Assembly: GCA_005191425.1 (NCBI GenBank)
Contig: SUPR01000058.1
Span: 1-22,721 of the forward strand
Length of the DNA stretch: 22,721 nt
Direction: 5' to 3'
Source of the DNA: Candidatus Helarchaeota ASGARD archaeon Hel_GB_B
Lineage (GTDB): Archaea; Asgardarchaeota; Lokiarchaeia; Helarchaeales; HEL-GB-B
The position numbers were made by a program, and so were the translations under genes. The notes beneath the pieces are model-generated. The model was not told where the DNA came from. It searched no databases and saw only the letters and a list, made by a program, of their open reading frames with translations. This document shows, one piece after another, positions 3,688 through 22,721 of this stretch (position 1 is its first letter; every line of letters begins with the position of its first letter).

Positions 3688-6063
3688 CTATGTAAAATAT
3701 CTCCAATAAATGTATATACCTGCTATAACGATTATTACAATCACTATAATTAATATAATAGTTGTCCAATCAAAAAAGTATCCCGCGCTAACTGAAACTT
3801 CCATTGAAAATGATCCAGAACCTGAATAAGCACTTAAAATGATATAATGAACTCCTGATGTTTCGGCTCTATATGCTGTTCGTTCAGGGTAATAGCTCGA
3901 TGTCGATGAATCGACCGAAGTAAAAGAACTATCTAATATATATATGTCAAAATCAGTCCCTGCATCTCCTGTCAATGATAGGATTAAGACTTGTCCTGCT
4001 AATAAAACTATTCTAAAAATTAGATACCCATTAGAATTTCCAGAATTGGGCAAACTTCCATATACTACTGCATCAGTTGGCAAATTAATTTCGAAAGAAG
4101 TTCCAATACTATTTCCATCTTCACAGGTTTGGTTTTTTACAAGGTTTAAAATAAAAAGCCCTTCTCCTGTATAAGGGTGGACTTTTATTCTATATTCTCC
4201 TGTTTCGGTGGTTGTTACACTTGTTAAATCTGGAAAGCTAGATGAAACCGCAGCTGTTATAAAAATTCCCGAGGGCGAATAAATATATAGATCAAAATCA
4301 GCAGCTGGAACTGGACTTGTCAGATTGAATAATATTGTAGAAACACTTTTTGAAATGTTAATCTTATACCAACTTGACCTATCATTAGCAGGCCCCGGCA
4401 AAATTCCAATAGATTCGCCCCAAGAAATTGATACCGCTGAATTAAACGAATCTCCACCCATAACCGTGTCTACTCCTACTATAAAATATAATGAGATATT
4501 TCGATGAATTATTCTAGTTATACCTGAAAATTTAGTATTCATGATAAAATACAATACAAACATTGACCTGTTTATTATAGTAGGACTTACATTAAAGATA
4601 AATGTCCCTGTTTTATATGAATTTATTGAAATTGAGCCATAATTACAAAAATTATTGGCCGGATTAACTGTGATATTTGGATTATTTGATTGTAATGACC
4701 CATTCACACATGATGCAAGAACTTCACCAGTATTCTTTAATGTAACTGAGAGTTTTAATGTTTTACCTTGCTTTATTGTTTCATTTGTGTAATAATTTGA
4801 TATGTCCACTGATACTTTTGGTACTGTATAATAGTAATTTAAAAAATTGTCCCAATTGGTCGATGTAGAAATTAATTGAGACCCATAAGATGACCTATAA
4901 TCTGAGCTGGTTTTTGGAAAATAAATACTAATCCCTTTAGCTCTACTTGTCCCTGTAGCTGCATAATTTATTACTACCTTATTTATTACAGTCTTTAAAG
5001 CACTAGCATTTGAGCTTATATAAGATAAACCCATTGGTGTAAGAAAATCACAAAAATCATATAAATCAATAAAAGATGGATAATAAAATTCTTGAGTCTG
5101 TTCTCTTGCAGATTGGACTTGTGAACTTTGTCCTAACAGGTTATTATAAAGACTATCTGCAAAATGACTAAAAGTCGTAGTTAGGTCATTATATGAAGTA
5201 CTGGACAAATTTACAGCGGACAGTGTGCAACCACTATAACTATTATAATAAGTCTCATAATCATCGACCATCATACTTGAAATTTGGTATGTAGTGTGTG
5301 TATCTCCATACAGGCACAAATCACCAATAATAGTTTTATATGGATATCCTGGAGCATAAATTGTCTCTTCTGAGGAAACAAGGACATCACATAAACCCTG
5401 AAGATAATACATTACTTCTAACATACCCATTAAGCAAGCGTCCATTGAAATGATATCTATTTTATCTTCACCCGCATCTGCGAGGGCTCCAGAAATTGCA
5501 TCTCTTACCTCAGATAATGATAGACCATCTTGTCCTGAATGATCATCGAAACTAATTCCAAACCACCCGCCACCATGATCCCATAGGTCTAAAACATATT
5601 TTTCAGCAGGATAATTTTGAAATACCCATTTTAAAAAAGTCCTCAGTGTTGTCCCATCACCCATGTTTGGTTCGCTCGGAATTCCTGTTGGATGGACTAT
5701 TGGAGAGGTTATTGCGGACGAAGTATCATGTTGAATTCTATAGGTCGTTGCACCTGAATGATATCGGTCAATTATAGTTATTATTGAAATATTTGCTGAA
5801 TTGTCCATTCCCGTTTCTATTTCATTAATATCATCTACCCCATACTCGTCAAGATTATTGTCAGCACAAAAATATCCAATATATGTCCACTTATATTTTG
5901 TAGCACTTTTATGTAATGTTTCTCCCGAATTAGAGTGTTGGATTGAAGAATTATATTGAATAAGATTCATTAGACTAGGAGCTACAAGCTGTAAAAATAA
6001 GACATTTACTATTAAAATTGAAAGGAATAGATTTCTTTTGTTCAATTCTTTTTGCCTCCCCAT
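3688..6063 (-). CDS. Membrane-anchored clostripain-family (C11) cysteine peptidase with an Ig/CARDB-like domain and two PPC-like domains
   Basis: N-terminal hydrophobic signal; WTYIGYFCADNNL; EPNMGD; catalytic His in WDHGGGW and Cys in MDACLMG; SEET; DLYDF; GISIYFP; PPC-like DFDLYIYSPSG and DFDIYILDSS; C-terminal TM helix. Confidence 0.9.
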   Translation of the reverse strand: MGRQKELNKRNLFLSILIVNVLFLQLVAPSLMNLIQYNSSIQHSNSGETLHKSATKYKWTYIGYFCADNNLDEYGVDDINEIETGMDNSANISIITIIDRYHSGATTYRIQHDTSSAITSPIVHPTGIPSEPNMGDGTTLRTFLKWVFQNYPAEKYVLDLWDHGGGWFGISFDDHSGQDGLSLSEVRDAISGALADAGEDKIDIISMDACLMGMLEVMYYLQGLCDVLVSSEETIYAPGYPYKTIIGDLCLYGDTHTTYQISSMMVDDYETYYNSYSGCTLSAVNLSSTSYNDLTTTFSHFADSLYNNLLGQSSQVQSAREQTQEFYYPSFIDLYDFCDFLTPMGLSYISSNASALKTVINKVVINYAATGTSRAKGISIYFPKTSSDYRSSYGSQLISTSTNWDNFLNYYYTVPKVSVDISNYYTNETIKQGKTLKLSVTLKNTGEVLASCVNGSLQSNNPNITVNPANNFCNYGSISINSYKTGTFIFNVSPTIINRSMFVLYFIMNTKFSGITRIIHRNISLYFIVGVDTVMGGDSFNSAVSISWGESIGILPGPANDRSSWYKINISKSVSTILFNLTSPVPAADFDLYIYSPSGIFITAAVSSSFPDLTSVTTTETGEYRIKVHPYTGEGLFILNLVKNQTCEDGNSIGTSFEINLPTDAVVYGSLPNSGNSNGYLIFRIVLLAGQVLILSLTGDAGTDFDIYILDSSFTSVDSSTSSYYPERTAYRAETSGVHYIILSAYSGSGSFSMEVSVSAGYFFDWTTIILIIVIVIIVIAGIYIYWRYFT

Positions 6064-9424: not shown

Positions 9425-10264
9425 TTGAATGAAATTCAAAATCTACTTAAAGAATATGAAATTTTGATAAGTAGAATTAGTGATTTAGAAGAAGCTTTAA
9501 GCATTGGAAGGAAACCAAATGCGTTTATATCTCTTCTTAAAAAAGAACAACCCAAACCAGCCCAAAAGCTAAAAATGAATTTACCTGACCCAAGATTAAT
9601 TGAATTCAAAAAAGATAGATTTGTAGAGCAGCTATCTGAAATTAAAAAGAAATTATTTGATATTTTTATAAAGTTAATCGAAAAAATTTCGGCAAATTTA
9701 GATGATTTACTTAGTAAAAAAGAAGATTTAGTTATAAAATTAGAAAAAGACTTTCAAATTGATAAGGATCTCTGGCTTTTCATTTCTGAATTATTTCATA
9801 TTAATTACCCCCTAAAAATTTTTGATTGTATTTTTACATTTAATGAAATAAGAATCTCCACCAACAAGGATATTAAAAAATCTTTGTACAGGGCTTTAGA
9901 ATTTTTAAAATTTGCTTCCAAGGCAGAATGCAATGAAATTGAAGAGATTTCAATCATGCGAATGAATTGGGAACTGTTAATGCGGACTACTATTAAAAAT
10001 AATATGTATGCAAAAATTTTTAGAAAAGTAGGTATGTCGGAAAAACCAATAAATATCCAAGATTTTTGTACATCTGAAAACTTAGAAATTAACGAAATTA
10101 AAAAAACTATTGATGAATTGAGTATTTTCTCCCCCCATGCTGGTCTAAAATTTCCAGTTATAGAAAAATTAGAAAGTGGTTATTTCACATTAAATTGCTA
10201 TGGAAAATTCTTATGGGAAAAATTTGGATTTATATTAAATGAAAAAATAGCTGCTTTAGTTTAA
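9425..10264 (+). CDS. Hypothetical helical protein with a possible C-terminal winged helix
   Basis: 279-aa ORF with a TTG start. The N-terminal half is coiled-coil-like. The C-terminal 75 aa end in a wing-like IEKLESGYFTLNCYGKFL. Confidence 0.65.
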   Translation: MNEIQNLLKEYEILISRISDLEEALSIGRKPNAFISLLKKEQPKPAQKLKMNLPDPRLIEFKKDRFVEQLSEIKKKLFDIFIKLIEKISANLDDLLSKKEDLVIKLEKDFQIDKDLWLFISELFHINYPLKIFDCIFTFNEIRISTNKDIKKSLYRALEFLKFASKAECNEIEEISIMRMNWELLMRTTIKNNMYAKIFRKVGMSEKPINIQDFCTSENLEINEIKKTIDELSIFSPHAGLKFPVIEKLESGYFTLNCYGKFLWEKFGFILNEKIAALV

Positions 10265-10309
10265 GTAATTGTGTTTCTTTCTTTTTTTTATTTTATTTTT
10301 CATTATATT

Positions 10310-11668
10310 TTATTTGTTAAGTTCTTCTTTATATTTGACCTTTCTTAAGAATAAATAACTTATGAAGTAACTTATGGAAGCGATCAAAAGAAGTAATGCA
10401 TAAGCAAAATCATGTCCCGGATATTCTCCTGTCCTATAAATCCAGAAATTTAATATAGGTGGTCCATTGATAAAAACATCATTGATCAAACCTACCAGTC
10501 CACTAGCAACGGGCATTCCAATCACTGAAACAAATAGCCAAATCCCTGAATATGTTGCTTCTTTATCTGGAGGTGCTATATCCATTAAAATTGCGTTCTG
10601 AAATGTAAGTACCGCTAGTAATACAAATAGTAGTATAGCAAAAACAATGATTAATTGAATTATTAATGATAATGGACTACCTGCTATGCCCAAAAAAATC
10701 ATAAAAGGTTGGACTAAAAATCCAATATAAAGCGCAATCTTAAAAGTTGGTATTTTTCCTCTTTTTTTAGACATTTTTGAATAAAACCAAAAACCAAAAA
10801 CAGCTACTATTAATAAAACTAAAAATATATTCCAAAATTCAACAGGAATATATGTCTGTTTAAATTTTAAAAAGTCCATAAATACCGTAGTCATTAATGA
10901 ATATGCTAATACAAAAAAGAATGAAGCACTTAAATAATATTTGAAATTATAATCTGTAATACTATCTTTAAATGACTTAAAAAATCCTGGAATTTTCTCT
11001 TTTAAATCTATCTTATTTATTTTTTCGAGGTCTTCTTTAGGCCCTAAAAAAAATACGAATAACATCAACAATAAATAAATACTTCCAACTAATGCCGTTA
11101 TTTCTAAAAATGAAGACATACCTTCAAAAACAAGCGGTATTATAAATGTAGCTATTGTCCCAATCATTCCAAATAAATTAATTGAAATTGAGGCTGAAAC
11201 CCGCTGATTTGGTGGCGTTAAGTCTACGTATAGCGCAATATAATTACAATATAATATTCTATATAAAGAAACATATAATGTCCCGAGTATCAACAATAAA
11301 ATATAATTCTGGGGAAAGCCCATTGATATTAAAATATTTGGTGGTAGTCCAAGAAAAATAAAACATGCTGCCGATGGAATAACAAGGAGTAAATAAGGTC
11401 TCCTCCGTCCAAACCTTGTCCTTGTCTTATCAGAAATATGACCTGAAAATATGTAGACTAATGCGCTTATTGCAAATGGTATTGTAATCATAGAAAAAGA
11501 TACTGTATTTAATATATTATCAAGCCCCAATAATGACAAAGACGGCTTAAATACATATTCTTTATAAAAAACTGGTAATAGAAAATAAAAAATCATATAT
11601 GCAAATGAATTACCAATCATTCCCACTGATAATTTAATTAATTCTAACTTGTTAATCAGTATCACCAA
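10310..11668 (-). CDS. MFS transporter, GPH (MelB/Na+-galactoside symporter-like) family
   Basis: About 12 TM segments; GHISDKTRTRFGRRRPYLL signature; second-half motif MSKKRGK. Confidence 0.9.
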   Translation of the reverse strand: MVILINKLELIKLSVGMIGNSFAYMIFYFLLPVFYKEYVFKPSLSLLGLDNILNTVSFSMITIPFAISALVYIFSGHISDKTRTRFGRRRPYLLLVIPSAACFIFLGLPPNILISMGFPQNYILLLILGTLYVSLYRILYCNYIALYVDLTPPNQRVSASISINLFGMIGTIATFIIPLVFEGMSSFLEITALVGSIYLLLMLFVFFLGPKEDLEKINKIDLKEKIPGFFKSFKDSITDYNFKYYLSASFFFVLAYSLMTTVFMDFLKFKQTYIPVEFWNIFLVLLIVAVFGFWFYSKMSKKRGKIPTFKIALYIGFLVQPFMIFLGIAGSPLSLIIQLIIVFAILLFVLLAVLTFQNAILMDIAPPDKEATYSGIWLFVSVIGMPVASGLVGLINDVFINGPPILNFWIYRTGEYPGHDFAYALLLLIASISYFISYLFLRKVKYKEELNK

Positions 11669-12226
11669 AAAAAATTCTAGGTTATTTAATTATATCCCAT
11701 TTATAAAAATTATCCTTCTGAATAAGTTATTATCAATTTAAAATAATTTGATTAAAAATTAAAACATAAAAATTTAATTAATTTCCGTTTGTTTTTTTGA
11801 CTAGAATTCCTTATTACATTATAAATTTCTTAAATAAAAGTCCTTATTATCTTTTATGAATTGTTCTTTTATTTCATAAGAAGGATTTTAATTTTCTATT
11901 ACTCTTGTAATTAAGATATTTTCCATTTTCATCTAATGTATGTTTTTTATTCTATTATGTAGTTATTATATTACAATTAAAATCAACAAAATTCGGCAAA
12001 AATTTAATTAGTCAAATATTATTTCTTTATGATTCTTATAATCTCGTGCATTGAAATTAAAAAAGAACCATTAATAATTAAGCAATAACTCTAATTTAGC
12101 AAATTCAATATTTAAATGAAGAATAAAGGAAAATAAATAAATATTTACACAGATTACCTTCAAATAAATTTTATATTAATCATTTCTTTATTAAATTAAC
12201 ATTAGAACTTGGAATAGGAAAATAAA

Positions 12227-13012
12227 ATGTCTAAAGTATATTATTCTAAATCTGAGGATAGAATAAAATTTGTAGACTTAATCATTAAAGAATTTAAAAA
12301 GGAATTGAAAGGTAGAATATTTATAAAGCCAAATATCGTTTCTTATGAAAAATATCCTACCACGACAAATTTAAAATTATTTGAAGCATTAATAAAAGCA
12401 TTAAATAGTTATGAACTTGCTGTTGGTGATGCTTCGGCTGTAGATTGTGTTGGATTTTCGGTTAATAAATCTGAAATAAAGAAAATTTGTGATAAATATT
12501 CAATTCCAATGTTTAATCTTTACAATAATATGAAAATAATAGAAAGCCGTTCCGGGTTTAAATTAAAAGTGGCACAGGAGCCATTAAATTATGATACAAT
12601 AATTTCACTACCTATTTTAAAAGTCCATGGACATTGTCAAATGACCGGGGCATTAAAAAATGCTTTTGGGTATTTATCAAAAGGAGAAAGAATAAAATGT
12701 CATACTAAAATAAAAGATATAAACCGAACTATTGCTGAATTAAACACTTTTTTTAAACCCACATTAACTATTATGGATGGAATAGAAACCTTATTAAAAA
12801 CAAACGAGATTAGACATGGAGGAAAACAGTATCATCTTGGTATACTTTGTGCAAGTTCTGACCCGGTTGCTTTAGATATATATGGGTTAAGTATTTTAAA
12901 GAACGTCGAGAAAAAATTAAGAAATAAGAGTCCAAAAGATATTAAATACATTAAACTTGCTATTGATTTAAATGTTGGTAATGAAGATTTTGAGCTAATT
13001 GAAATATGTTAA
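12227..13012 (+). CDS. DUF362 domain protein
   Basis: IFIKPNIV, AVGD, IISLPILKVHG, MTGALKNAFG, TIMDGI and DPVALD are the DUF362 motif series. Confidence 0.85.
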   Translation: MSKVYYSKSEDRIKFVDLIIKEFKKELKGRIFIKPNIVSYEKYPTTTNLKLFEALIKALNSYELAVGDASAVDCVGFSVNKSEIKKICDKYSIPMFNLYNNMKIIESRSGFKLKVAQEPLNYDTIISLPILKVHGHCQMTGALKNAFGYLSKGERIKCHTKIKDINRTIAELNTFFKPTLTIMDGIETLLKTNEIRHGGKQYHLGILCASSDPVALDIYGLSILKNVEKKLRNKSPKDIKYIKLAIDLNVGNEDFELIEIC

Positions 13013-13020
13013 TTTTTTTT
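13013..13020 (+). terminator. Oligo-T tract, candidate terminator of the DUF362 gene
   Basis: T8 immediately after the TAA stop. Confidence 0.35.
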
Positions 13021-13147
13021 ATTTTGATATTTGTAAATAATCTCTATATTTTAATTTTTAAAGTATCGACTGACTTACTAAATTTTTAAATAAATTCAAT
13101 TCAATTTTATAAATAAGAATATAAATCATATTAATTTAACGAGAGGA

Positions 13148-14359
13148 ATGTTTGTAATGGAATTGATGGAAACCCCTAGTGTTTTAAGGTCGCCAAATGC
13201 AGAAAAAAAAGAAAAAACAGTTGTCGCAATTGGTGGCGATGGTATTGGACCATTAGTTGTTAATGGGACTGTTCATGTATTAAAAGGTATGAAAATCCCG
13301 GGACTAACAATAAAAGAAATGCCTGCCGGAGAATCTGCAATAAAAACTCACGGTTCTGCGTTTCCCCCTGAAACTAAAGAAGCAATTGATAAATGCGATG
13401 CGATTCTTTTTGGAGCAACTGAGGAGAAAGCACTACAAGTTATTGCGTATTTACGATGGGGTCTACAAAACTTTGCTAATATCCGTCCCATTAAATACTT
13501 TAAAGGAATGGAAACGGTTATGAAAACTGAACTTGTTGAAAATGTAGATTATACTTTTGTCAGGGAAGGAACTGAAGGAATGTATGCCGCTGCAGGAAAG
13601 GAAGGCAAAGTTAAAGCTCTTTTTAGAAAAGGCGTTATTACAAAAGCTGATTTAGAAAAATGGGGCGAAAAAGCAAAATATGCATTCCGTATAGTTTCTC
13701 CACAAGGTACTGATAGAATTGGTAAAGTAGCATGCGAAATTTGTATGAAACGAAAAGAAAAGGGTATCGGCAAAGGTCTACTGGAAATTGTCTGTAAACC
13801 AAACGTCCTAAGAGACCAAGATAGGATGTTTATTAATAGAATTAAAAAAATAGCTGAAAATTATTTCCCGGAAATTACAGTTGAAACATATATTGTTGAC
13901 GATTTCGCAAGAAGATTATTAAGATATCCTGATTATCATGATACTATAGTAATTCCCAATATGCTTGGCGATATTCTTTCTGATGAAGCTGCCGAAATTG
14001 TGGGTGGACTTGGTGTTGCCGGATCTGGTGTATATGGACCAAAAGCCTCTTATTTCGAACCTACTCACGGGTCTGCACCTGCAGTATTAGCCCGCAAAAA
14101 TTATAAAGGTGAACCTGTAGCAAATCCAACTGCCACACTACTTTCTGCTGTAATGATGTTAGATTACCTCGGCTACGAAACAGAATCAGAAAAATTATAT
14201 TCCGCTATTGCAAAAATGATTGAAGGCGGGTTAGATGTTGAGTCTAACTGGAAGACATTACCAAGAGACGCAGTACCAGAAAAATACCGCAAGGAAGGAA
14301 AGTTCGGCAGCACTATGGACGTTTCAGAAAAAGTCTTGGAAGAATACAAAAAACTCTAA
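13148..14359 (+). CDS. Isocitrate/isopropylmalate (beta-decarboxylating) dehydrogenase family protein; substrate not determined
   Basis: GGDGIGP, ANIRP, FVREGTEGMY, KPNVL, PNMLGDILSDEAA and FEPTHGSAP; GAGAGG RBS upstream. Confidence 0.92.
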   Translation: MFVMELMETPSVLRSPNAEKKEKTVVAIGGDGIGPLVVNGTVHVLKGMKIPGLTIKEMPAGESAIKTHGSAFPPETKEAIDKCDAILFGATEEKALQVIAYLRWGLQNFANIRPIKYFKGMETVMKTELVENVDYTFVREGTEGMYAAAGKEGKVKALFRKGVITKADLEKWGEKAKYAFRIVSPQGTDRIGKVACEICMKRKEKGIGKGLLEIVCKPNVLRDQDRMFINRIKKIAENYFPEITVETYIVDDFARRLLRYPDYHDTIVIPNMLGDILSDEAAEIVGGLGVAGSGVYGPKASYFEPTHGSAPAVLARKNYKGEPVANPTATLLSAVMMLDYLGYETESEKLYSAIAKMIEGGLDVESNWKTLPRDAVPEKYRKEGKFGSTMDVSEKVLEEYKKL

Positions 14360-14631
14360 TTTATTTTCTAATTATTTTTATACCTAATATTTTATTATAT
14401 TTTTATTTTAATTTCTTTCCCATTTATTTTTAATTAGTACAAAACTCCTATCTAAAATAATCTTACATTTTTAACATAACTTATATTCCAAATTTTAGAA
14501 ATTAGTCAAACTTGATTTCTTTTTTAAAATGTAATTTTATAAAAAGATATTTACTTATTATTATTTATATTTAATATTAACCAAATTAAACCAAATGAAC
14601 TAATCATATAAAATTTAAATATTAATTTGGG

Positions 14632-16314
14632 ATGATCATAGTGTCGGAAAATTCTGATGATAATGTTTCCAACCTTTTACAACAAAAGGAAACGAGGATG
14701 TCTGAATTAAGAAAAGAAATACAAAAAATTACAAATGAAAGAAATGAATTAAATTTGAAAAATCAACGATTAACTGAAGACATCGAAGATTTGAAAAAAG
14801 AGATTGAAAAAATTAAAGAATTAAATACCGAAAAAATTAAAGAATTAAATAATAAATTGAATGAAACTACTCAATTATTATCTCAAAAAGATTCCACAAT
14901 TGAAGAGAAATCAAGAAAATTAAACGAAGCACAAGTTGATTTAAAAAGGTTAAAATCTCAAAATGAAGAGAAAAAGAATAGAATTGAAGAATTAAACAAT
15001 AATATCACCCTTTTAACCCAGCAAAAAAAAGAACTTGAAAGAAAAGTTGATTCCCTTAACTCGAAATTAAGAGAACTTGAAACTGAAAAAATAACATTAC
15101 AAAACAATTTGAAACAAGCTCAAGATAAAATCAATCTTTTAGACGAAGAACTTGAAAAATTAAAAACATCTAAAACTGAGAATGAACGTATCATTAATAA
15201 TTATTCAAATGAACTTGAAAAATTAAGAAACGAACTAACTCTAGAAACTCAAAAAGTTGATGAATTAAATACAAAAATTGAAAAAATTAATAAAGAAAAA
15301 AGCGATGAAATAAAAAAATTAAAACAAGATTTAGAAGAAGAAAAAAGGAAGGTATCACAATTAAGCGAATATAATGACCGAAAATCCGATGAATTAATCC
15401 TAAAAAACAATGAAATCACTGAATTGAAACAAAAAATTGAAAATATTAAATTACAGAATACGAGCAATAGGGAACAAACATTTAAATTAGAACAAGAAAT
15501 TAACGCAAAAAATAAAATAAATCAGGTACTAAAAAACGAGTTGGAAACTCTAAAAAATGATTATAAGAATGCTCTAAATGTAATTAAAAGGCAATTAATT
15601 GAAAATTTTAAGCCTAATCTTGATTCTAATTTTAAACGTGCAATTTCAGCAGCTGAAGATGTACAATATAAAGAACTAAAAGAATTAGAAGAAATTTATA
15701 ATAATACTATGACTTTTGTTAAAGAATTACAAAAGGGCCAAATTCAAACACTTCAAAATTATTATTCTAAACAGATGGTATTAATTGAAGAACAAATAAA
15801 CAGTATATCTAAGGCAATAATAGATATTGATGAAAAAAAGAAATTGGACGAATCTAAACTTGAAAAAATAGAATCTGAATTCAAATCCAAAATTGAAAAA
15901 GAAGTAATAAAACCTCAAGAGCCTGTAAAGACTTCCAGTGGTTCTCCATTTGAAAAAATCCAAACTGTAATTACTCCAAGAGGTGAATCAATTTCAATTT
16001 CAATGGAACCAACTGTTGAAAAGAAGCAAAATTGTTTTTTGGTATTTTCAGGTAAAATATTCACTCGTATTTCCGAACCCGCAGAGTCAGGCATAAGAAT
16101 GATATTGGACGAAAAAGAAAAAAAGTGGTTACTTTATTTTGATGAAGATACACAATTAATAGACCAAAGAACTGCTGAGAGGCAAGCTAGGTCAATCTCT
16201 AAAGCTGGATTTGGAACTGAAACTGGAGAACGACTAGGTATTGGTTATGAGCTTAAAATTATCGGAGAAAAAGATGTACCTCCACGTCTATTAAAAGACC
16301 AACATGAATATTAA
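14632..16314 (+). CDS. Long coiled-coil protein with a Pro/Ser linker and a small globular C-terminal domain
   Basis: About 420 aa of E/K/L/N/Q-rich heptad sequence without Pro or Walker motifs, then KPQEPVKTSSGSP, then a roughly 95-aa mixed alpha/beta domain ending PPRLLKDQHEY. Confidence 0.8.
   Translation: MIIVSENSDDNVSNLLQQKETRMSELRKEIQKITNERNELNLKNQRLTEDIEDLKKEIEKIKELNTEKIKELNNKLNETTQLLSQKDSTIEEKSRKLNEAQVDLKRLKSQNEEKKNRIEELNNNITLLTQQKKELERKVDSLNSKLRELETEKITLQNNLKQAQDKINLLDEELEKLKTSKTENERIINNYSNELEKLRNELTLETQKVDELNTKIEKINKEKSDEIKKLKQDLEEEKRKVSQLSEYNDRKSDELILKNNEITELKQKIENIKLQNTSNREQTFKLEQEINAKNKINQVLKNELETLKNDYKNALNVIKRQLIENFKPNLDSNFKRAISAAEDVQYKELKELEEIYNNTMTFVKELQKGQIQTLQNYYSKQMVLIEEQINSISKAIIDIDEKKKLDESKLEKIESEFKSKIEKEVIKPQEPVKTSSGSPFEKIQTVITPRGESISISMEPTVEKKQNCFLVFSGKIFTRISEPAESGIRMILDEKEKKWLLYFDEDTQLIDQRTAERQARSISKAGFGTETGERLGIGYELKIIGEKDVPPRLLKDQHEY
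14806..14851 (+). repeat. In-frame 22-bp direct repeat with a 24-bp period (EKIKELNT-EKIKELNN)
   Basis: GAAAAAATTAAAGAATTAAATA occurs at 14806-14827 and 14830-14851. Confidence 0.8.
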
Positions 16315-16345
16315 ATTTTATTCTCTCTTATTTTTTATTATAAAA

Positions 16346-18112
16346 TTAAAAAAATAGATAATATGAATTTGCAAAAATATAGGCTATAAAAATTGTTTCA
16401 AAAAGAATACCTTCTATAATAGTCCGCGATTTTTCATATAGATAAATTGATGTAAGTGAAATTCCCGTCAAAAAAATAGCTCCTATTGTTGTTGGGATAT
16501 AATAATCCTTAGTTATTTGGAGCATCGGAAATAATACTCCTATACATATAAATCCTGTTGTCCATCGAATCAAAAGATTTGAAAAGAATTTCTTATGTTT
16601 ATTATGCTTCATTAATTCTTCTTGTATTATTTTTCTAAAAATCAATTCAATTCCAAATATTGGTATAGCTAAGAGAAGACTCTCTATGTAATAATAATAT
16701 GACCTCGGATAAATGAAAATAATTTTAAACGCATTACTGATAACGAAATAGATAACCGTAAGTAATATACCAAAAATAACCCCTAATGTAATACTTTTTA
16801 TATCTAATTCCTTTTTAATATTTCTTTTTATGAAATCAATGTTTACTTTTTCTCTATTTTTATACCAAAGAACGCCAATTGCATAAATAATGAATAAAAG
16901 TCCTCCAATTATCATAGTCAAAATAAAATTGTTTATTATCGGAAGTAAAAAATATAATACAACCCATATTCCAAATACTGGAATTAATACCATTGTTATA
17001 TATAAAGTTAATCTTCCTAATGTTTTTAATTTTTCAATTCTATTTTTAGTAAATTCTTGATTTTTCAATTTTTGATCTGAATTTAGCATTCTTGAACTTT
17101 TTATATTTCTATATATAAAAAACGCGAATATAGCTATGAGATATTGAATTAGCAGTAAGGTGACTATTTGGTTCATAAAGACTTGAACCCAAACTATTTC
17201 TTTCTCTAAAATACTTCGTGGTTCAGGGGAAATTCCCATTAATTTTTCTTCAAAATATTGGACAACTCGAATATTTGTATAGAATAAATCTGTATTCATT
17301 AAACTATGGTCTGCCCCAGGTAAGATTTCAAGTTGACATTTTTTTGAGTTATTAATTGTTTTATTTATATCCACTCCTTGTTGAGCAGGTACTAGCGTGT
17401 CTGCTCCGCCATAAATCAATAACAAGTCCTGTGGAATTATCCCGGGAAATGTCCCGTTCAAATAAAGAACTGCTGAAAGATTGCGCCTTAATTCTGGATT
17501 ATGCAGTATGTCTTCATTAAATGGTATTTTCATTAAATGGAATTGTCTATCAAAATCATGTCTCGTAGAAAAATATGTTAAATTACTTGGACCAGCCAAT
17601 GAAATCGAAGCGTTTATCCTAGGATCTATTACACTAGCCATTAATGTAGCCCAACCTCCTAAACTATGACCAAAACACCCAATTGCTGAGATATTAAATA
17701 TGTTTTTCCTTAAATAAATATAATCCAATGCTCCAATTACATTTTCCCAAAATAATGGCCCTAAAGTTTCTCGTTCGTATATCCCTCTACTTGTTTGTCC
17801 ATGCCCCTCTTGGTCTAATTGTAATACCATAAACCCTTTTTTTGTCAATTCAAGGGGAAATCTCACATCTAAATCTTTAGACCAAGATAATCCATGTAAA
17901 TAGATAATTACAGGACACGGCATTGAAAATGGCTTTTTTGGATAATACAAATTTGCACTTACAATGTCTCCATTCCGACTTGGAAATGTTATAGTTTCCA
18001 CTTTAATTATTGACTGTGAATATATGTAAATATTAGATGAAATCGTATAAAATAAAACTGAAATTGGTAATATTATTAAAATTAAAATCCTTAATATTAT
18101 CCATATCTTCAT
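16346..18112 (-). CDS. Alpha/beta hydrolase with an N-terminal anchor and a C-terminal multi-TM domain
   Basis: YLHG oxyanion region, nucleophile GHSLGG, Asp in GGADTLV, His in PGADHSL; the last ~280 aa are polytopic. Confidence 0.88.
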   Translation of the reverse strand: MKIWIILRILILIILPISVLFYTISSNIYIYSQSIIKVETITFPSRNGDIVSANLYYPKKPFSMPCPVIIYLHGLSWSKDLDVRFPLELTKKGFMVLQLDQEGHGQTSRGIYERETLGPLFWENVIGALDYIYLRKNIFNISAIGCFGHSLGGWATLMASVIDPRINASISLAGPSNLTYFSTRHDFDRQFHLMKIPFNEDILHNPELRRNLSAVLYLNGTFPGIIPQDLLLIYGGADTLVPAQQGVDINKTINNSKKCQLEILPGADHSLMNTDLFYTNIRVVQYFEEKLMGISPEPRSILEKEIVWVQVFMNQIVTLLLIQYLIAIFAFFIYRNIKSSRMLNSDQKLKNQEFTKNRIEKLKTLGRLTLYITMVLIPVFGIWVVLYFLLPIINNFILTMIIGGLLFIIYAIGVLWYKNREKVNIDFIKRNIKKELDIKSITLGVIFGILLTVIYFVISNAFKIIFIYPRSYYYYIESLLLAIPIFGIELIFRKIIQEELMKHNKHKKFFSNLLIRWTTGFICIGVLFPMLQITKDYYIPTTIGAIFLTGISLTSIYLYEKSRTIIEGILFETIFIAYIFANSYYLFF

Positions 18113-18134
18113 GAGTAATTAAAATAATATTAGA

Positions 18135-18142
18135 TATTTAAA
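18135..18142 (-). promoter_or_regulatory. Candidate TATA box (TTTAAATA) for a leaderless transcript of the alpha/beta hydrolase
   Basis: Lies 23-30 nt upstream of the ATG at 18112, the spacing expected for leaderless archaeal mRNAs. Confidence 0.45.
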
Positions 18143-18194
18143 TTTATTAGTGTTTAATCAAAATAAATAATGAAATAAATCGTTTATATTAACA

Positions 18195-18956
18195 TTAATT
18201 CTTCTTATCTTTATACCATCCTGTTTTAAAAAATCGACGTTTAAATTTTGGATTTTTCCGTAAAAAATCGTTTATCGATTTATGAAATGCAGCATAATCT
18301 ATTTTTCTCGGATTTACATCTAAAATATTTTTTGGAATTCCAATTGATTCTAAATACTGTAAAAACCGCGTTTCAGCTAAAATGTGTGCAATTCCATCTG
18401 CTTTTGTTGTTATAATATTATAACCATTTTTCCACAAATAATCAATAGAAGTAGTAAAAATATCACCCGGACAGATTTTAATAAATGCATCTCGAGTGAT
18501 ATTAAGTTCTCTAAAAGCCCATTGTAATCTTTTTAATACTTCAATATTATATTGTTTACTCGAAAAAAGCGGTTTTTGAAAAAATCGAAGTCCAATAATT
18601 TTTAATGCTGCCATATCTCGCTCTTTAGAATAAATACAGATTACAATTCCTCCAACAGGACACCCAATGCCTGCATCATCAATTTCGACAGATTTTTTCC
18701 CATTGAATTGGTGTAAAAAACTTTTTAATCTTTCCATATCATTAAATTTATTTATATAACTAAAGTACGGCAAAGAATTATAATATACTTTAAATTGTTT
18801 ATTTGTAGGGTATTTGTAAATCTTAATTATGTTCCCATCATGAGTAAAACCTGCAACAAATTTCTCACTATTTTCTTGTAATTTACTCCATTCAAGTTTT
18901 GCAAGTTTATCAATTAATTCTTTTACTTTATCCTCATCCCAATAAACAAATTTCAT
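18195..18956 (-). CDS. RNase H type 2-like protein with an ~85-aa N-terminal extra domain
   Basis: VEIDDAGIGCPVGGIVI resembles the RNase HII/HIII GxDEAGxGPxxGPLV strand. TKADG...ILAE resembles the KAD...ILAK motif. The C-terminal KTGW resembles an uncharacterised archaeal/firmicute family as I recall it. Confidence 0.7.
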   Translation of the reverse strand: MKFVYWDEDKVKELIDKLAKLEWSKLQENSEKFVAGFTHDGNIIKIYKYPTNKQFKVYYNSLPYFSYINKFNDMERLKSFLHQFNGKKSVEIDDAGIGCPVGGIVICIYSKERDMAALKIIGLRFFQKPLFSSKQYNIEVLKRLQWAFRELNITRDAFIKICPGDIFTTSIDYLWKNGYNIITTKADGIAHILAETRFLQYLESIGIPKNILDVNPRKIDYAAFHKSINDFLRKNPKFKRRFFKTGWYKDKKN

Positions 18957-18995
18957 TATTTCAACCGAAAATACTTTTACTTTTTATTCTATTTG

Positions 18996-19166
18996 TTAAA
19001 CTTTTTTTCTTTTCCAAAACTTAAGCAAATAGACTAAAATAATTTCAATTATGACCCACATAACTAATAGAACTATCCAAAAGTTCGGAAATATCAAGAA
19101 TGTTAATATAATTCCGCCAATAATTACCAATAGAGAAAGCAATACTTTAATTGGATATAAATTCAA
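18996..19166 (-). CDS. Small 56-aa two-helix membrane protein; absent from the ORF track
   Basis: TTG start; translated by hand as (M)NLYPIKVLLSLLVIIGGIILTFLIFPNFWIVLLVMWVIIEIILVYLLKFWKRKKV*. It has two TM helices and a basic C-tail, GGTATGGTG upstream, and ends 39 bp before the RNase H-like gene. Confidence 0.7.
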   Translation of the reverse strand: MNLYPIKVLLSLLVIIGGIILTFLIFPNFWIVLLVMWVIIEIILVYLLKFWKRKKV

Positions 19167-19237
19167 GTTTTTTAAACACCATACCTTTTAAAGATTAATG
19201 TTAATTTAAAATATAATTTATTATTTTAATTTTTCTA

Positions 19238-19274
19238 AGATATTTAAATTTTGAAAGATCGCCTTTAAATATCT
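19238..19274. promoter_or_regulatory. Perfect 11-bp inverted repeat AGATATTTAAA-N15-TTTAAATATCT in a divergent intergenic region
   Basis: Arms at 19238-19248 and 19264-19274. Each arm contains a TTTAAATA TATA-like box facing outward. Confidence 0.5.
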
Positions 19275-19443
19275 AAATTGTTAAATTATTTTATTAAATT
19301 ATAGATTCTTTTTTAATTAAATTATCTATTTTTCAATATAATTAATTATTTCTATTTATATTTCCCAATCTTATTTTTATTAAAAATATTAAGTTTATTA
19401 AATTAGATAACTTTATTAACTTTTTTCAAAAATAACTCACCAA

Positions 19444-20124
19444 ATGAAAACATTAATTTCGAAGGAAGACATGCTAGATTATTTAAAAAATAAAAGAGAT
19501 AATACAAAAATTCAATATATTGTATTTGATATTGATGACACTATAATGGATACAGCGGAAAGAAAAAAAATTATTTATAATAGATTAAAAAAAATGTATG
19601 ATTTACCAACTATTTCTTCCGAAGAATTTGAAAAAGCATATAATATTGCTCAAATATTAGTCAAATATAATTTTCAAGAAGATGAAATCTTAAAAATTAA
19701 TCAAAAATTTGTAAAATTATTTCTTTCTAATAAATATATTTTAAAAGACCGCCCATTTCCAGGTATAAAGGATATAATTAATGAATTACTAAAAATGAAT
19801 TATTATATTATTTATCTAACGGGCAGGACTATCAATTTACGTAAAAAAACCATAAAATCTTTTAAAATGAATGAAATTCCAATTCAAAAACCTAATATTG
19901 ATTTAGTCATGAAAAAAGATAATGATTGCCCTGATTTGACTTTTAAATTGGAATATATTAAAAATTTTAGGGAAAAAGAAAATATAGTTTGTTTTATAGA
20001 TAATGATTCAGAGACTTGTAATGAACTCAAACGAATTCTCAATAGTAATTTAATTATTAAATTTTATTCTACACAGAAAGATAATTTAATTTATAATGGT
20101 CCTTATATTTCAAAATGGACTTAA
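19444..20124 (+). CDS. HAD-superfamily phosphatase resembling the T4 Pnk 3'-phosphatase / acid phosphatase class
   Basis: FDIDDT (DxD), YLTGR, LVMKKDNDCPDLTFK and FIDND. Confidence 0.8.
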   Translation: MKTLISKEDMLDYLKNKRDNTKIQYIVFDIDDTIMDTAERKKIIYNRLKKMYDLPTISSEEFEKAYNIAQILVKYNFQEDEILKINQKFVKLFLSNKYILKDRPFPGIKDIINELLKMNYYIIYLTGRTINLRKKTIKSFKMNEIPIQKPNIDLVMKKDNDCPDLTFKLEYIKNFREKENIVCFIDNDSETCNELKRILNSNLIIKFYSTQKDNLIYNGPYISKWT

Positions 20125-20139
20125 TTTCACGAGGTTTAA

Positions 20140-21291
20140 ATGATGTATAGTAAATTTAGGCATGATGAAATTCATATTGCATTTAATGGAGATGAAATAG
20201 AACGCGTTACAGACCCGATTATAAAAAGCAAAGCAGATAAAGTTTACATTTTTACTTTTTATAAAGAATGGACTGACCCCGAAACTGGAGAAAAAAAATT
20301 TCAAGTAGACCAAAACTTAGATAAGTACCAAGAAGTGAAAAAACAGCTAGAATCAGCGGGAATTGAAGTAGTTAAAAATGTACCCAAATCCTTACAAAAT
20401 ATCCAAGACCCTATGGGTAATTATCTTGATGGTATACCTGTATCATATCATGATTATGTTGAAATTATGCAAAAAATTTCTGAAATAATTATTAATGAAC
20501 GAATTAAAGACAAAAATGTGAACATTAGCTTAAATCTTGCTGTTGGCTCAAAAATTACCGCAATTGCGGGACTTGATTGTGCTCGTTTTTGGAATATTAA
20601 TGTCTATTATGTAATTCCCGAATTTTGGGATCAAAGAAAAAATATGGACGAACCACTTAGTTCTGGCAAAATGGTCTGTATATCCCCACCACATTTCGAA
20701 ATGAAACGTCCATCTAATAAATTAATCCGGGCTCTAAAAGTTATAAACGATATTTTTGAAGAAAACAAAAAAATAATCAATGACAATTATAAGAAAATTG
20801 AAAAAATAACTGGATTAGAATTAACAGATAATGAATTAAACACCAAGAATGTTCTCGATTATGAACCACTTTACGAACAAATAAATAAAGTAAAAGAAGG
20901 GTTATCGTCAAATCAAAAGAAGATCATTGATCAATTACACCAAGAAATTATCGTTAAATTGCAAGAAAATCAAATGGGAGTAAAAAAATCAAAGCTATTA
21001 AAGCATTTAAGGTTAGCTCACTTAGTTTCATCAAACAAATATGATAATATTCCTATTTCTTCCAAATTAGCAGGTAAAGAATTATCAACTTTTTATGGTG
21101 CTATGAATAAACAAATCATTCATCCTCTAAAAGAATGGAATTTAATTAAAGAAAATGATACTCATAAAAATAAGTCCATCCAAATAACTGAATATGGCAA
21201 GCTTTTTTTGAAAATATTCAAGTACATTTTGATCTATGAAGATTTAAATAATAAACACATTAATAATTATAAAAAATCGAATGGGGTCTAA
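20140..21291 (+). CDS. DUF6293/HFX_2341-like protein: CARF-like Rossmann domain plus C-terminal winged HTH (Csa3-like architecture)
   Basis: HIAFNGDEIERVTDP...ADKVYIF, LNLAVGSKITAIAG, YYVIPE; C-terminal KKSKLLKHL...IIHPLKEWNLI...IQITEYGK wHTH; GAGGT RBS. Confidence 0.75.
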   Translation: MMYSKFRHDEIHIAFNGDEIERVTDPIIKSKADKVYIFTFYKEWTDPETGEKKFQVDQNLDKYQEVKKQLESAGIEVVKNVPKSLQNIQDPMGNYLDGIPVSYHDYVEIMQKISEIIINERIKDKNVNISLNLAVGSKITAIAGLDCARFWNINVYYVIPEFWDQRKNMDEPLSSGKMVCISPPHFEMKRPSNKLIRALKVINDIFEENKKIINDNYKKIEKITGLELTDNELNTKNVLDYEPLYEQINKVKEGLSSNQKKIIDQLHQEIIVKLQENQMGVKKSKLLKHLRLAHLVSSNKYDNIPISSKLAGKELSTFYGAMNKQIIHPLKEWNLIKENDTHKNKSIQITEYGKLFLKIFKYILIYEDLNNKHINNYKKSNGV

Positions 21292-21292
21292 G

Positions 21293-22721
21293 ATGTCAAA
21301 ATTAAAGTTTTATGGTGGTGTTAATTGCATAGGGGGAAATATAGTATTACTAGAAGACAAAAACACCCGGATACTAATTGATTTTGGTATGAGTTTCTCT
21401 AATGAAAATAAATATTACAGTGATTTTCTAAAAAATCGCCAAGGAAACGGCATAAGAGACCATTTATCTCTAAATTTAATACCAAAAATCCCTGGATTAT
21501 ATAGAGAAGACCTATTAAATATTGAAAAAGCCGATGAATTAATGAAGGAATTAGGTCTGAGAGGTAAATATTTATTCAAATCGGACCTTGAGAGCTATGA
21601 AAAATATATCGAAGAAAACAATAGACCTTATATTGATGCAATTTTAATTTCTCACGTTCATTTAGACCATTGTGGGTATATCTGGATGGTCGGAAAAGAT
21701 ATACCTATTTATCTTTCAGACGTATCCGTCCAGTTTTTAAATATTATTGATGAAATATCAAAGAATAATAAATTGAGTATAGTGAAATACAGAATATTAG
21801 ACCGAGCTTCTTCTGGGTATTTTAAAGGTGAAAAAAAAATAAAAAAATCTAATACACCTCTTCCTAGAAATATTTTGGAATATCATGATGAAACTGAATT
21901 TACAATTGGTAATTTGAAAATTACTCCTTATTATGTTGACCATTCAATTCTCGGTGCTTCTGCATTTTTAATAGTGGATTCGGATAATAAAAAAATATTT
22001 TATACCGGTGACTTTAGATTTCATGGTAGACAGACAAATTTAACCAAGAAATTCAAACAGGCAATGACTGATCTTCGTCCTGACGTAATGATTACAGAAG
22101 GTACTAAAATAACAGAAACTAAACGTGATGATGAAATTGAAGTAGAAAATAAAATTTATGAAATAGCAAAAAATACCAACAAATTGATATTTATCACATT
22201 TGCTTGGAAAGATATTACGAGATTCCAAACAGTAAGGAATGTTTGTGCAAGGACTGGTCGAAAATTTATAATACCTGGAAAAATGGCTTATTTACTAAGA
22301 AAAATGAAGTCTTATTTAGATTTTAATTTTTCAGATCCATTAACTGATCCTTATATATTGGTTTATTTGCCTAGAAAAGGCGGAATGATCTATCTAAAAA
22401 CTGACTATTCATATAATAAATTAGATGTGGGCTTGAACCCTGATTGGACTAATTCTCCTAATATTGAAATTTATGAGAATGGAATTAAGGCTTACGAAAT
22501 CCATGAAAATCAATCAAAATATATTGTCTATTTAAATGATTATATGCTAAATGAGATCATTGATATTAATCCTAGTGCAGGTGCATTATATATAAGAGCT
22601 CTTAGTGAACCTTTTGATTTAGAAGGTGAAATAGATGAACAAAGAATTAAAAATTGGCTGAAATTTTTTAAAATAAATCTTCCTTCTAGCGAAATAATAA
22701 ATATACATGCATCTGGGCATA
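21293..22721 (+). CDS. Metallo-beta-lactamase/beta-CASP nuclease (archaeal RNase J-like); 3'-partial, runs off the window
   Basis: ATG 1 nt after the previous stop and an open frame to the end of the window. Translated by hand: FYGGVNCIGGN, LIDFG, SHVHLDHCGY (HxHxDH), VDHS, YTGDFRFHG, ITEGT and IHASGH. Confidence 0.92.
   Translation, partial: MSKLKFYGGVNCIGGNIVLLEDKNTRILIDFGMSFSNENKYYSDFLKNRQGNGIRDHLSLNLIPKIPGLYREDLLNIEKADELMKELGLRGKYLFKSDLESYEKYIEENNRPYIDAILISHVHLDHCGYIWMVGKDIPIYLSDVSVQFLNIIDEISKNNKLSIVKYRILDRASSGYFKGEKKIKKSNTPLPRNILEYHDETEFTIGNLKITPYYVDHSILGASAFLIVDSDNKKIFYTGDFRFHGRQTNLTKKFKQAMTDLRPDVMITEGTKITETKRDDEIEVENKIYEIAKNTNKLIFITFAWKDITRFQTVRNVCARTGRKFIIPGKMAYLLRKMKSYLDFNFSDPLTDPYILVYLPRKGGMIYLKTDYSYNKLDVGLNPDWTNSPNIEIYENGIKAYEIHENQSKYIVYLNDYMLNEIIDINPSAGALYIRALSEPFDLEGEIDEQRIKNWLKFFKINLPSSEIINIHASGH

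Follow-up and report, generated by a model that had tools for sequence, protein, structure and literature searches.

A CARF-wHTH regulator, a HAD phosphatase and an uncharacterized beta-CASP nuclease precede NurA, HerA, Mre11 and Rad50 genes in a Helarchaeota genome

The stretch of DNA analyzed here, referred to below as the window, is the entire 22,721-bp contig SUPR01000058.1 of the Asgard archaeon Candidatus Helarchaeota Hel_GB_B (contig C138 of assembly G000: 3.54 Mb, 28% G+C, 93.7% complete). Its closest homologues are labelled Helarchaeota or Lokiarchaeota, which places the host among Lokiarchaeia-type Asgard archaea. Three genes occupy the right end of the forward strand: a haloacid dehalogenase (HAD) phosphatase of 226 aa (19444..20124), a 383-aa regulator that joins a CARF domain to a winged helix-turn-helix (CARF-wHTH; 20140..21291), and a metallo-beta-lactamase (MBL) nuclease of the beta-CASP type (21293..22721), whose reading frame is still open where the window ends. 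The original prediction had grouped these genes with a divergently transcribed RNase H-like gene and a micro-protein gene, and had read the set as a CRISPR-independent system for sensing and processing RNA ends. An open reading frame (ORF) check finds all five ORFs as described, and the family assignments hold up in Pfam, NCBIfam and PADLOC. The close spacing holds as well: 15 nt separate the HAD and CARF genes, and 1 nt separates CARF from beta-CASP when counted from the ATG at 21293, while the longest ORF, from 21281, would overlap the CARF gene by 11 nt. Homologues begin at ATG 21293, and the gene is called from there on a longer contig.

The window conceals the continuation of the cluster. 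C138 stops inside the beta-CASP gene, 47 codons short of its end, and four downstream genes are thereby hidden. An exact-protein look-up of the CARF protein retrieved a 42.7-kb contig from another assembly (L045), which is 99.99% identical to window positions 10140-22721 and onward matches contig C158 of G000 at 99.8%; C158 itself carries the HerA C-terminus, Mre11 and Rad50. On L045 seven genes lie on one strand in the order HAD - CARF-wHTH - beta-CASP - NurA - HerA - Mre11 - Rad50, with gaps of 43, 19, 2 and -4 nt from beta-CASP to NurA, HerA, Mre11 and Rad50 in turn. Pfam matches identify NurA (72.8 bits), HerA/DUF87 (141.8 bits), Mre11/Metallophos (57.8 bits) and Rad50 (AAA_23 and SMC_N), and the four families stand adjacent on one strand, the hallmark of the archaeal HerA-NurA-Mre11-Rad50 operon. 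The system boundary drawn in the original prediction is thus an artefact of the contig end: the resection genes come directly after beta-CASP. Beyond them, on C158 (L173, 4817-8077), a 1086-aa CHAT-domain protease gene on the opposite strand converges on the rad50 end and is followed by a gene for a 596-aa DUF72 protein.

Upstream of the cluster, the usable conserved boxes of the intergenic region 18957-19443 came solely from cross-genome alignment, which reveals two separate conserved AT-rich boxes, one by each start. The box on the HAD side (19388..19415, forward strand) is conserved in the three-genome alignment and contains TTTATTAA at 19394-19401, 43-50 nt upstream of the HAD start; it is a candidate TATA/BRE promoter element. 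A repeat search of the same region turned up numerous weak AT-rich repeats and nothing that convinces as an operator palindrome.

The complete beta-CASP gene encodes 523 aa on L045 (527 aa from the ATG at 21281) and carries MBL motifs 1-4 together with beta-CASP motifs A, B and C. The catalytic positions are intact: D34, H125/H127/D129/H130, H221, D244, E273 (motif A), H476 (motif B) and H502 (motif C) are invariant in a 20-sequence alignment. The protein does not belong to any of the named groups that we compared it with. The original description of an RNase J-like beta-CASP enzyme stands as far as the beta-CASP motifs go, but not for RNase J: the match to TIGR00649 covers a partial region and reaches 51.2 bits against a cut-off of 400, and solved bacterial RNase J structures give only weak matches. 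An aCPSF1 identity fails in the same manner (56.7 bits against the TIGR03675 cut-off of 580, with no KH domains), and the genome has separate aCPSF1-like (634-aa open frame) and aCPSF2-like (431 aa) genes, both of which the tree places outside the clade with 100% support; as the aCPSF2-like copy is a separate gene, we also reject membership in the ~420-aa COG1236 group of aCPSF2. Cas14 of type VII systems, for which we asked for at least 800 bits to NF045584, a C-terminal Cas10-like domain and cas7/cas5 neighbors, is likewise rejected: the match is 34.5 bits over residues 7-44 only, the protein has 523 aa against a 612-position model, and its neighbors are NurA and HerA. Nor is it a member of the SNM1/Artemis group, as there is no DRMBL match, a weak RMMBL match (23.4 bits) appears instead, and motif C is a histidine. 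The best solved relative by sequence is Enterococcus EF2904 (PDB 2az4; E 7e-15), which typifies an uncharacterized clade. The family exceeds 2,295 clusters at E < 1e-10, spread over many archaeal phyla and Chloroflexota, and members of the clade normally carry the annotation 'RNase J'. It may equal one of the additional, non-monophyletic archaeal beta-CASP clusters that Phung et al. 2013 set aside (PMC3553952).

The regulator is identified by HFX_2341_N (58.3 bits, cut-off 30) and by the wHTH family DUF6293_C (36.4 bits, cut-off 27), as well as by the PADLOC 'CARF3' models (E 5.7e-39), a label whose meaning is limited to the PADLOC model names. It has the features of the Csa3/HFX_2341-like type—a Rossmann-like CARF domain, pocket loops after strands 1 and 4, and fusion to a wHTH—and, in addition, lineage-specific CARF insertions and a long linker. 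The pocket loops are conserved: N132 and G136 are invariant, K138 is near-invariant, and the motif 'HIAFN..E..R' follows strand 1. The CARF-wHTH identity originally assigned is thus confirmed, pocket motifs included. In Csa3, two motifs hold cyclic tetraadenylate (cA4) (PMC8699464), and counterparts of both are recognizable and conserved in the regulator. The family prototype, HFX_2341, is a Csa3-like transcriptional repressor that has no genomic association with CRISPR/cas, yet represses them when over-expressed (PMC11434293). The HFX_2341_N family is present in 94 of the 301 Asgard genomes searched.

The phosphatase matches the Pfam families HAD_2 (36.6 bits) and Acid_phosphat_B (32 bits) and displays all four HAD superfamily motifs (I DxDxT, II S/T, III K, IV DD/DN), with D29, D31, T33, T126, K157/K168 and D186-N187 invariant in 9 orthologues. 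A word-based homologue search gave only 3 proteins, and the AlphaFold2 (AF2) fold was built from the 9 orthologues taken out of the loci. The resulting model has a predicted local distance difference test (pLDDT) score of 91.5 and places a five-helix C1 cap after motif I, at residues 38-101. Its nearest folds are SP0104, BT2127 pyrophosphatase, AphA, pseudouridine-5'-phosphatase, YqfW-type nucleotidases and phosphoglycolate phosphatases. By contrast, T4 Pnk/PNKP-type enzymes reportedly have a capless (C0) HAD core that is open to polynucleotide ends, according to the cap classification associated with Burroughs et al. 2006. No PNKP appears in the top 50 PDB or top 30 SwissProt fold matches, all of which are capped small-molecule or nucleotide phosphatases, and the HAD_PNKP Pfam match is borderline (27.8 bits against a cut-off of 27.6) and confined to the C-terminal half. 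We accordingly reject the T4 Pnk type originally proposed for this protein, whose fold is of the generic small-molecule kind that the original prediction itself had named as speaking against it. From the model, the substrate is likely a nucleotide or other small phosphoester.

Wider sampling of the beta-CASP clade bears on the company this enzyme keeps. Among 84 loci clustered by neighbor content, the most frequent neighbor families include Rad50-like (11), Mre11-like (7) and HerA (7). A Rad50, Mre11, HerA or NurA gene lies within 5 kb in 18 of the 86 rows of the family tree, and the neighbor label changes 10 times on that tree, with at least 6 changes forced by well-supported branches. The arrangements differ between lineages: Mre11-PD(D/E)XK-MBL-Rad50 in Dehalococcoidia, NurA-HerA-MBL in Nanoarchaeia, an MBL gene beside Rad50-Mre11-MrfA-like helicase-exonuclease-HerA in Altiarchaeales, and Rad50-like...methylpurine glycosylase-MBL in Hadesarchaea. 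We found no published description of a beta-CASP linked to NurA, HerA or Rad50 in a literature search that was incomplete and does not prove novelty. Since the operon at the locus continues into resection genes, and since Rad50-, Mre11- and HerA-like genes are the most frequent neighbors of the clade across phyla, the context is one of DNA-end resection and not of RNA ends. The link from the beta-CASP protein itself to break repair is one of guilt by association.

The cluster is conserved among relatives. All seven genes, together with the same divergent neighbors, are found on a 467-kb Helarchaeota contig (L047) with protein identities of 41-72%, and a 22-kb contig labelled Lokiarchaeota (L050) keeps the same gene order up to HerA, where the locus ends. 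Thus in G000, L047 and L050 the HAD-CARF pair is upstream of and co-directional with the resection operon. Other genomes of the host's order carry HNH-MBL-NurA-HerA-Mre11-Rad50 (G003) or MBL-NurA-HerA-Mre11-Rad50 (G002). In G004, a single contig holds NurA-HerA-Mre11-Rad50 without beta-CASP, then MoxR-like AAA_5 and VWA genes, and then convergent CARF and HAD genes; in G002 the same convergent HAD-CARF layout is split between two contigs, each of which ends within Rad50, so that their join is inferred. Within the order, the HAD-CARF pair thus keeps its linkage to the resection operon under two layouts. The MoxR-like AAA_5 and VWA (CobT_C) genes come right after Rad50 in two genomes of the order (L169, G004:C216, 2216-6630; L025, 7101-11520), an unusual addition. 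Small HNH endonuclease genes stand directly upstream of beta-CASP in G003 (L170, 8183-8671) and of HAD in G002 (L025, 5034-5453).

Parts of the cluster recur farther afield. In another Lokiarchaeial genus, all 3 of 3 genomes (L042, 4778-8365; L041; L176) carry, in this order, HAD, CARF-wHTH, a 341-355-aa HTH_3 protein and a canonical RNase HII; as a neighbor of the HFX_2341_N family, HAD is found only in this genus and the host's order. Adjacency of CARF and beta-CASP genes recurs in several Asgard lineages (L035, L060, G292). In the last of these, from another Asgard family (L174, G292:C181, 1405-5869), a 283-aa CARF-wHTH and a 470-aa beta-CASP of the same clade are followed by Cas6 and Cas8b (Cas_TM1802). 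The synteny that had been proposed as a check is accordingly borne out in part: HAD-CARF recurs in two Lokiarchaeial lineages and CARF-beta-CASP in several Asgard ones, but HAD-CARF also occurs without beta-CASP.

The genome holds a second resection operon with a CARF gene at its side. On contig C98 (L043, 3786-13000), a gene for a 300-aa CARF-wHTH-Zn-ribbon protein is followed on the same strand by one for a PIN-ATPase-KH protein, and both diverge from a second NurA-HerA-Mre11-Rad50 operon. The C98 CARF gene is the only other HFX_2341_N gene in G000 and its product is 24% identical to the regulator in the window; both HFX_2341_N genes of this genome consequently adjoin NurA-HerA-Mre11-Rad50 operons. 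In G003 a weak CARF-HTH, of a third CARF-HTH type, diverges from the operon. Besides the two full operons, G000 has a third HerA locus, a HerA-NurA pair. The three HerA types differ in distribution: nearly all Lokiarchaeia searched have the C139 type, close orthologues of the C138/C158 type are confined to the host's order, and the C98 type is sporadic (5 of 100 genomes of the class). No Mre11 or Rad50 gene was found in the G000 assembly outside the C138/C158 and C98 loci.

The genes on the other side of the intergenic region belong to a different unit. On the reverse strand, a micro-protein gene (18996..19166; 55-56 aa, TTG start) comes first in the divergent unit, followed by the RNase H-like gene (18195..18956) and, co-directional and downstream, by a gene for an alpha/beta-hydrolase identified by Pfam as S9/S33-like (16346..18112). 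The micro-protein has two hydrophobic segments, which by eye suggest two transmembrane helices; it is 62-71% identical in L047, L048, L049 and L050 (tblastn), where its gene in every case immediately precedes the RNase H-like gene, and no part of the intergenic alignment is better conserved than its region. In the same four loci the hydrolase gene comes right after the RNase H-like gene. In L048 and L049 the three genes are kept and an unrelated small MBL gene replaces the HAD operon. Because they persist where that position lacks the HAD operon, micro-protein, RNase H-like and hydrolase genes form a separate neighboring unit, and the first two drop out as parts of the system into which they had been placed.

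The RNase H-like protein (253 aa) has no Pfam match, RNase_HII included, and no PDB sequence-profile match. Its AF2 model (pLDDT 83.6) joins an additional N-terminal domain to a type-2 RNase H core, an RNase HIII-like architecture. The top Foldseek matches in PDB and AFDB-SwissProt are RNase HIII, with probability 1.0 and TM-scores of only 0.3-0.4, so that the 'RNase H-like' call holds at the level of the fold. Its family comprises 163 clusters (50% identity) without a Pfam model, and most members, at ~170 aa, consist of the catalytic domain alone. In a 40-member alignment D93, D94, G98 and C162 are invariant, E195 is near-invariant and D165 is not conserved. The RNase HII/HIII motif is DEAG, where this protein has DDAG; the catalytic set of type-2 RNases H is DEDD.

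The genes that flank the seven-gene cluster are ordinary metabolic genes. Elsewhere in the window, a 791-aa clostripain-family (C11) peptidase is encoded at 3688-6063, and two small ORFs without family matches come after it. A 560-aa coiled-coil protein (14632-16314) lacks an ATPase domain and gives weak SMC/Rad50-like and JetC/LmuB-like matches, and the synteny of its gene is kept in L047-L050. Neither a CRISPR-like array nor an Rfam family is found anywhere in the window, and none of the ORFs scanned matches a cas family; with the models used, neither Cas1 nor Cas10 is found in the 93.7%-complete genome. The independence from CRISPR/cas asserted for the locus is in agreement with these searches.

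We favor, with a confidence that stands at about even, the reading of the locus as a ligand-gated regulator module that heads an accessory DNA-end resection operon including an uncharacterized beta-CASP nuclease. The CARF-wHTH protein would act as a transcription factor of the Csa3/HFX_2341 type; a small nucleotide-type ligand would bind in its Rossmann-like pocket, and it would set the transcription of its own operon. The capped HAD would have a small phosphorylated compound as its substrate, a nucleotide being the most plausible, and would either turn over the ligand of the regulator or handle nucleotides released by resection. The beta-CASP protein may serve as an accessory end-processing nuclease that works with Mre11-Rad50 and HerA-NurA on broken or foreign DNA ends. 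A more ambitious version holds that CARF nucleotide sensing has been wired to resection in one Asgard order, with a signal that might be a DNA-end degradation product or an infection signal, the HAD as its eraser, and the beta-CASP protein as a functional analogue of Artemis/SNM1 for inducible repair or for CRISPR-independent destruction of foreign DNA; this we consider quite unlikely.

Several observations weigh against the favored reading. Motif C of the beta-CASP protein is a histidine, and the protein weakly matches RMMBL, the 'RNA specificity' domain. Under a rule reportedly laid down by Callebaut in 2002, histidine at motif C marks the RNA-acting members and valine the DNA-repair group, and an RNA substrate is therefore predicted; the nearest named relatives after EF2904 are INTS11, CPSF73 and RNase J. 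In 68 of the 86 clade loci there is no break-repair neighbor within 5 kb, and in G292 the CARF-MBL pair heads a type I-B-like cas6-cas8b cluster. Linkage within the host's class is not uniform either: the resection operon of G004 does without beta-CASP, the HAD-CARF pair on a short contig of G001, from the same genus, is followed by an unrelated gene, and in the other Lokiarchaeial genus no resection genes are near the pair. A CARF gene beside C98-type operon orthologues in other families was looked for and not found. The action of HFX_2341 is global and falls mostly on transport genes (PMC11434293). Finally, a sequencing-run search finds the DNA of the window in contigs from hydrothermal-vent and marine-sediment metagenomes and no RNA run with the locus, and it is for this reason that we only infer co-transcription and regulation.

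One alternative is that the locus is an accessory, CRISPR-independent machine against mobile elements, in which CARF senses an infection signal and switches on DNA destruction by Mre11-Rad50, HerA-NurA and beta-CASP, with HAD as the reset. Antiviral signalling is the best-known role of CARF domains, and the C138/C158 and C98 HerA types have the patchy distribution typical of accessory genes. The surroundings of the operon offer further hints: the CHAT protease after it, HEPN/NTase genes nearby in L047, the MoxR-like AAA_5 and VWA genes after Rad50 in G002 and G004, and the cas6-cas8b cluster of G292. Against this, the flanking genes are metabolic, and PADLOC defense models other than CARF have no match among the four proteins scanned (RNase H-like, HAD, CARF and beta-CASP; NurA, HerA, Mre11 and Rad50 were not scanned). 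The signal synthase Cas10 is not found in the genome, a search that did not extend to other cyclases. With the only Mre11 and Rad50 genes of the assembly in two loci, at least one of these loci must be housekeeping. We regard this explanation as unlikely.

A comparably low probability goes to the proposal that there is no functional unit at all, and that HAD-CARF is an independent global metabolic repressor like HFX_2341 plus a housekeeping phosphatase, a pair that just happens to lie beside the resection genes in a few near relatives. HFX_2341 controls chiefly genes for transport and metabolism (PMC11434293), the positive cases all come from one order, and the pair stands apart from resection genes in another genus and precedes an unrelated gene in G001. 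Moreover, 29 other Asgard CARF loci have no HAD neighbor, and only one of the 29 (G292) has a beta-CASP or resection-gene neighbor. What argues against chance is that the linkage survives rearrangement, the pair being upstream and co-directional in one family and convergent at the 3' side in another, and that the distant CARF paralog and the third CARF-HTH type flank the second operon of the genome and the operon of G003, respectively. The gaps of 15 nt and 1 nt also leave scant space for separate promoters.

The RNA-damage response of the original prediction, in which CARF senses cyclic oligoadenylate or 2',3'-cyclic-phosphate ends, HAD heals RNA 3' ends, and beta-CASP and the RNase H-like protein degrade RNA, is very unlikely: the 'RNA-type' histidine, RMMBL match and RNase relatives of beta-CASP, the conserved CARF pocket, the borderline HAD_PNKP match and the proximity of HAD-CARF to type-2 RNase H genes in two lineages speak for it, but a capped HAD with no PNKP among its top 50 folds is unlikely to admit a polynucleotide end, the operon runs into four DNA-resection genes, the RNase H-like gene belongs to another unit, Cas10 is not found in the genome, and there is neither a sigma-54 AAA+ domain of the RtcR type in the regulator nor rtcAB in the locus. 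The association of a sensor with a nuclease that the prediction had recognized is real, but the analysis does not bear out an RNA-end mechanism, a T4 Pnk-type HAD or the boundaries drawn for the system.

Comparison with known systems indicates what is new in the locus. The herA-mre11-rad50-nurA operon of Sulfolobus and Pyrococcus has the same four families, adjacent and co-directional; here the order is nurA-herA-mre11-rad50, three extra genes (HAD, CARF-wHTH and beta-CASP) stand ahead, and the operon is one of two in the genome, next to a third HerA-NurA pair. With Csa3 and HFX_2341 the regulator shares the CARF and winged-helix domains and counterparts of the cA4-pocket motifs, but it is a 383-aa protein with CARF insertions and a long linker, set in an operon with HAD and nucleases in a genome where no Cas10 is found. 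The EF2904 clade has the full MBL and beta-CASP motif set and a mixed archaeal-bacterial distribution like that of the clusters of Phung et al.; here and in several phyla its members are embedded in Mre11/Rad50/HerA/NurA loci. Judging by its context, placed with double-strand-break factors, the beta-CASP protein may work similarly to eukaryotic SNM1, Artemis and Apollo, although, lacking DRMBL and with His rather than Val at motif C, it is not a member of that group by sequence. RtcR-RtcAB offers another parallel, a CARF sensor over nucleic-acid end-processing genes with no CRISPR link; RtcR, however, includes a sigma-54 AAA+ domain, and the genes under its control are those of an RNA ligase and cyclase, whereas the regulator here has a wHTH output and adjoins DNA resection genes. 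In the neighboring unit, the RNase H-like protein shares with bacterial RNase HIII, by fold, an N-terminal domain and a type-2 RNase H core, with DDAG in the place of DEAG, but it is archaeal, has no match to RNase_HII or the PDB sequence profiles, and sits with a micro-protein and a hydrolase.

The locus brings together CARF-wHTH and HAD, a beta-CASP nuclease and a resection operon, where the end of a contig had given the appearance of an 'RNA system'. Little is known about how break resection is controlled in archaea, or about end-trimming nucleases other than Mre11 and NurA. A widespread, uncharacterized beta-CASP clade that lies repeatedly inside Mre11/Rad50/HerA/NurA loci of archaea and bacteria may be a missing end-processing nuclease. 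If the favored reading is true, control by nucleotide ligands would extend to genome maintenance, or a new kind of defense would have been built from repair parts.

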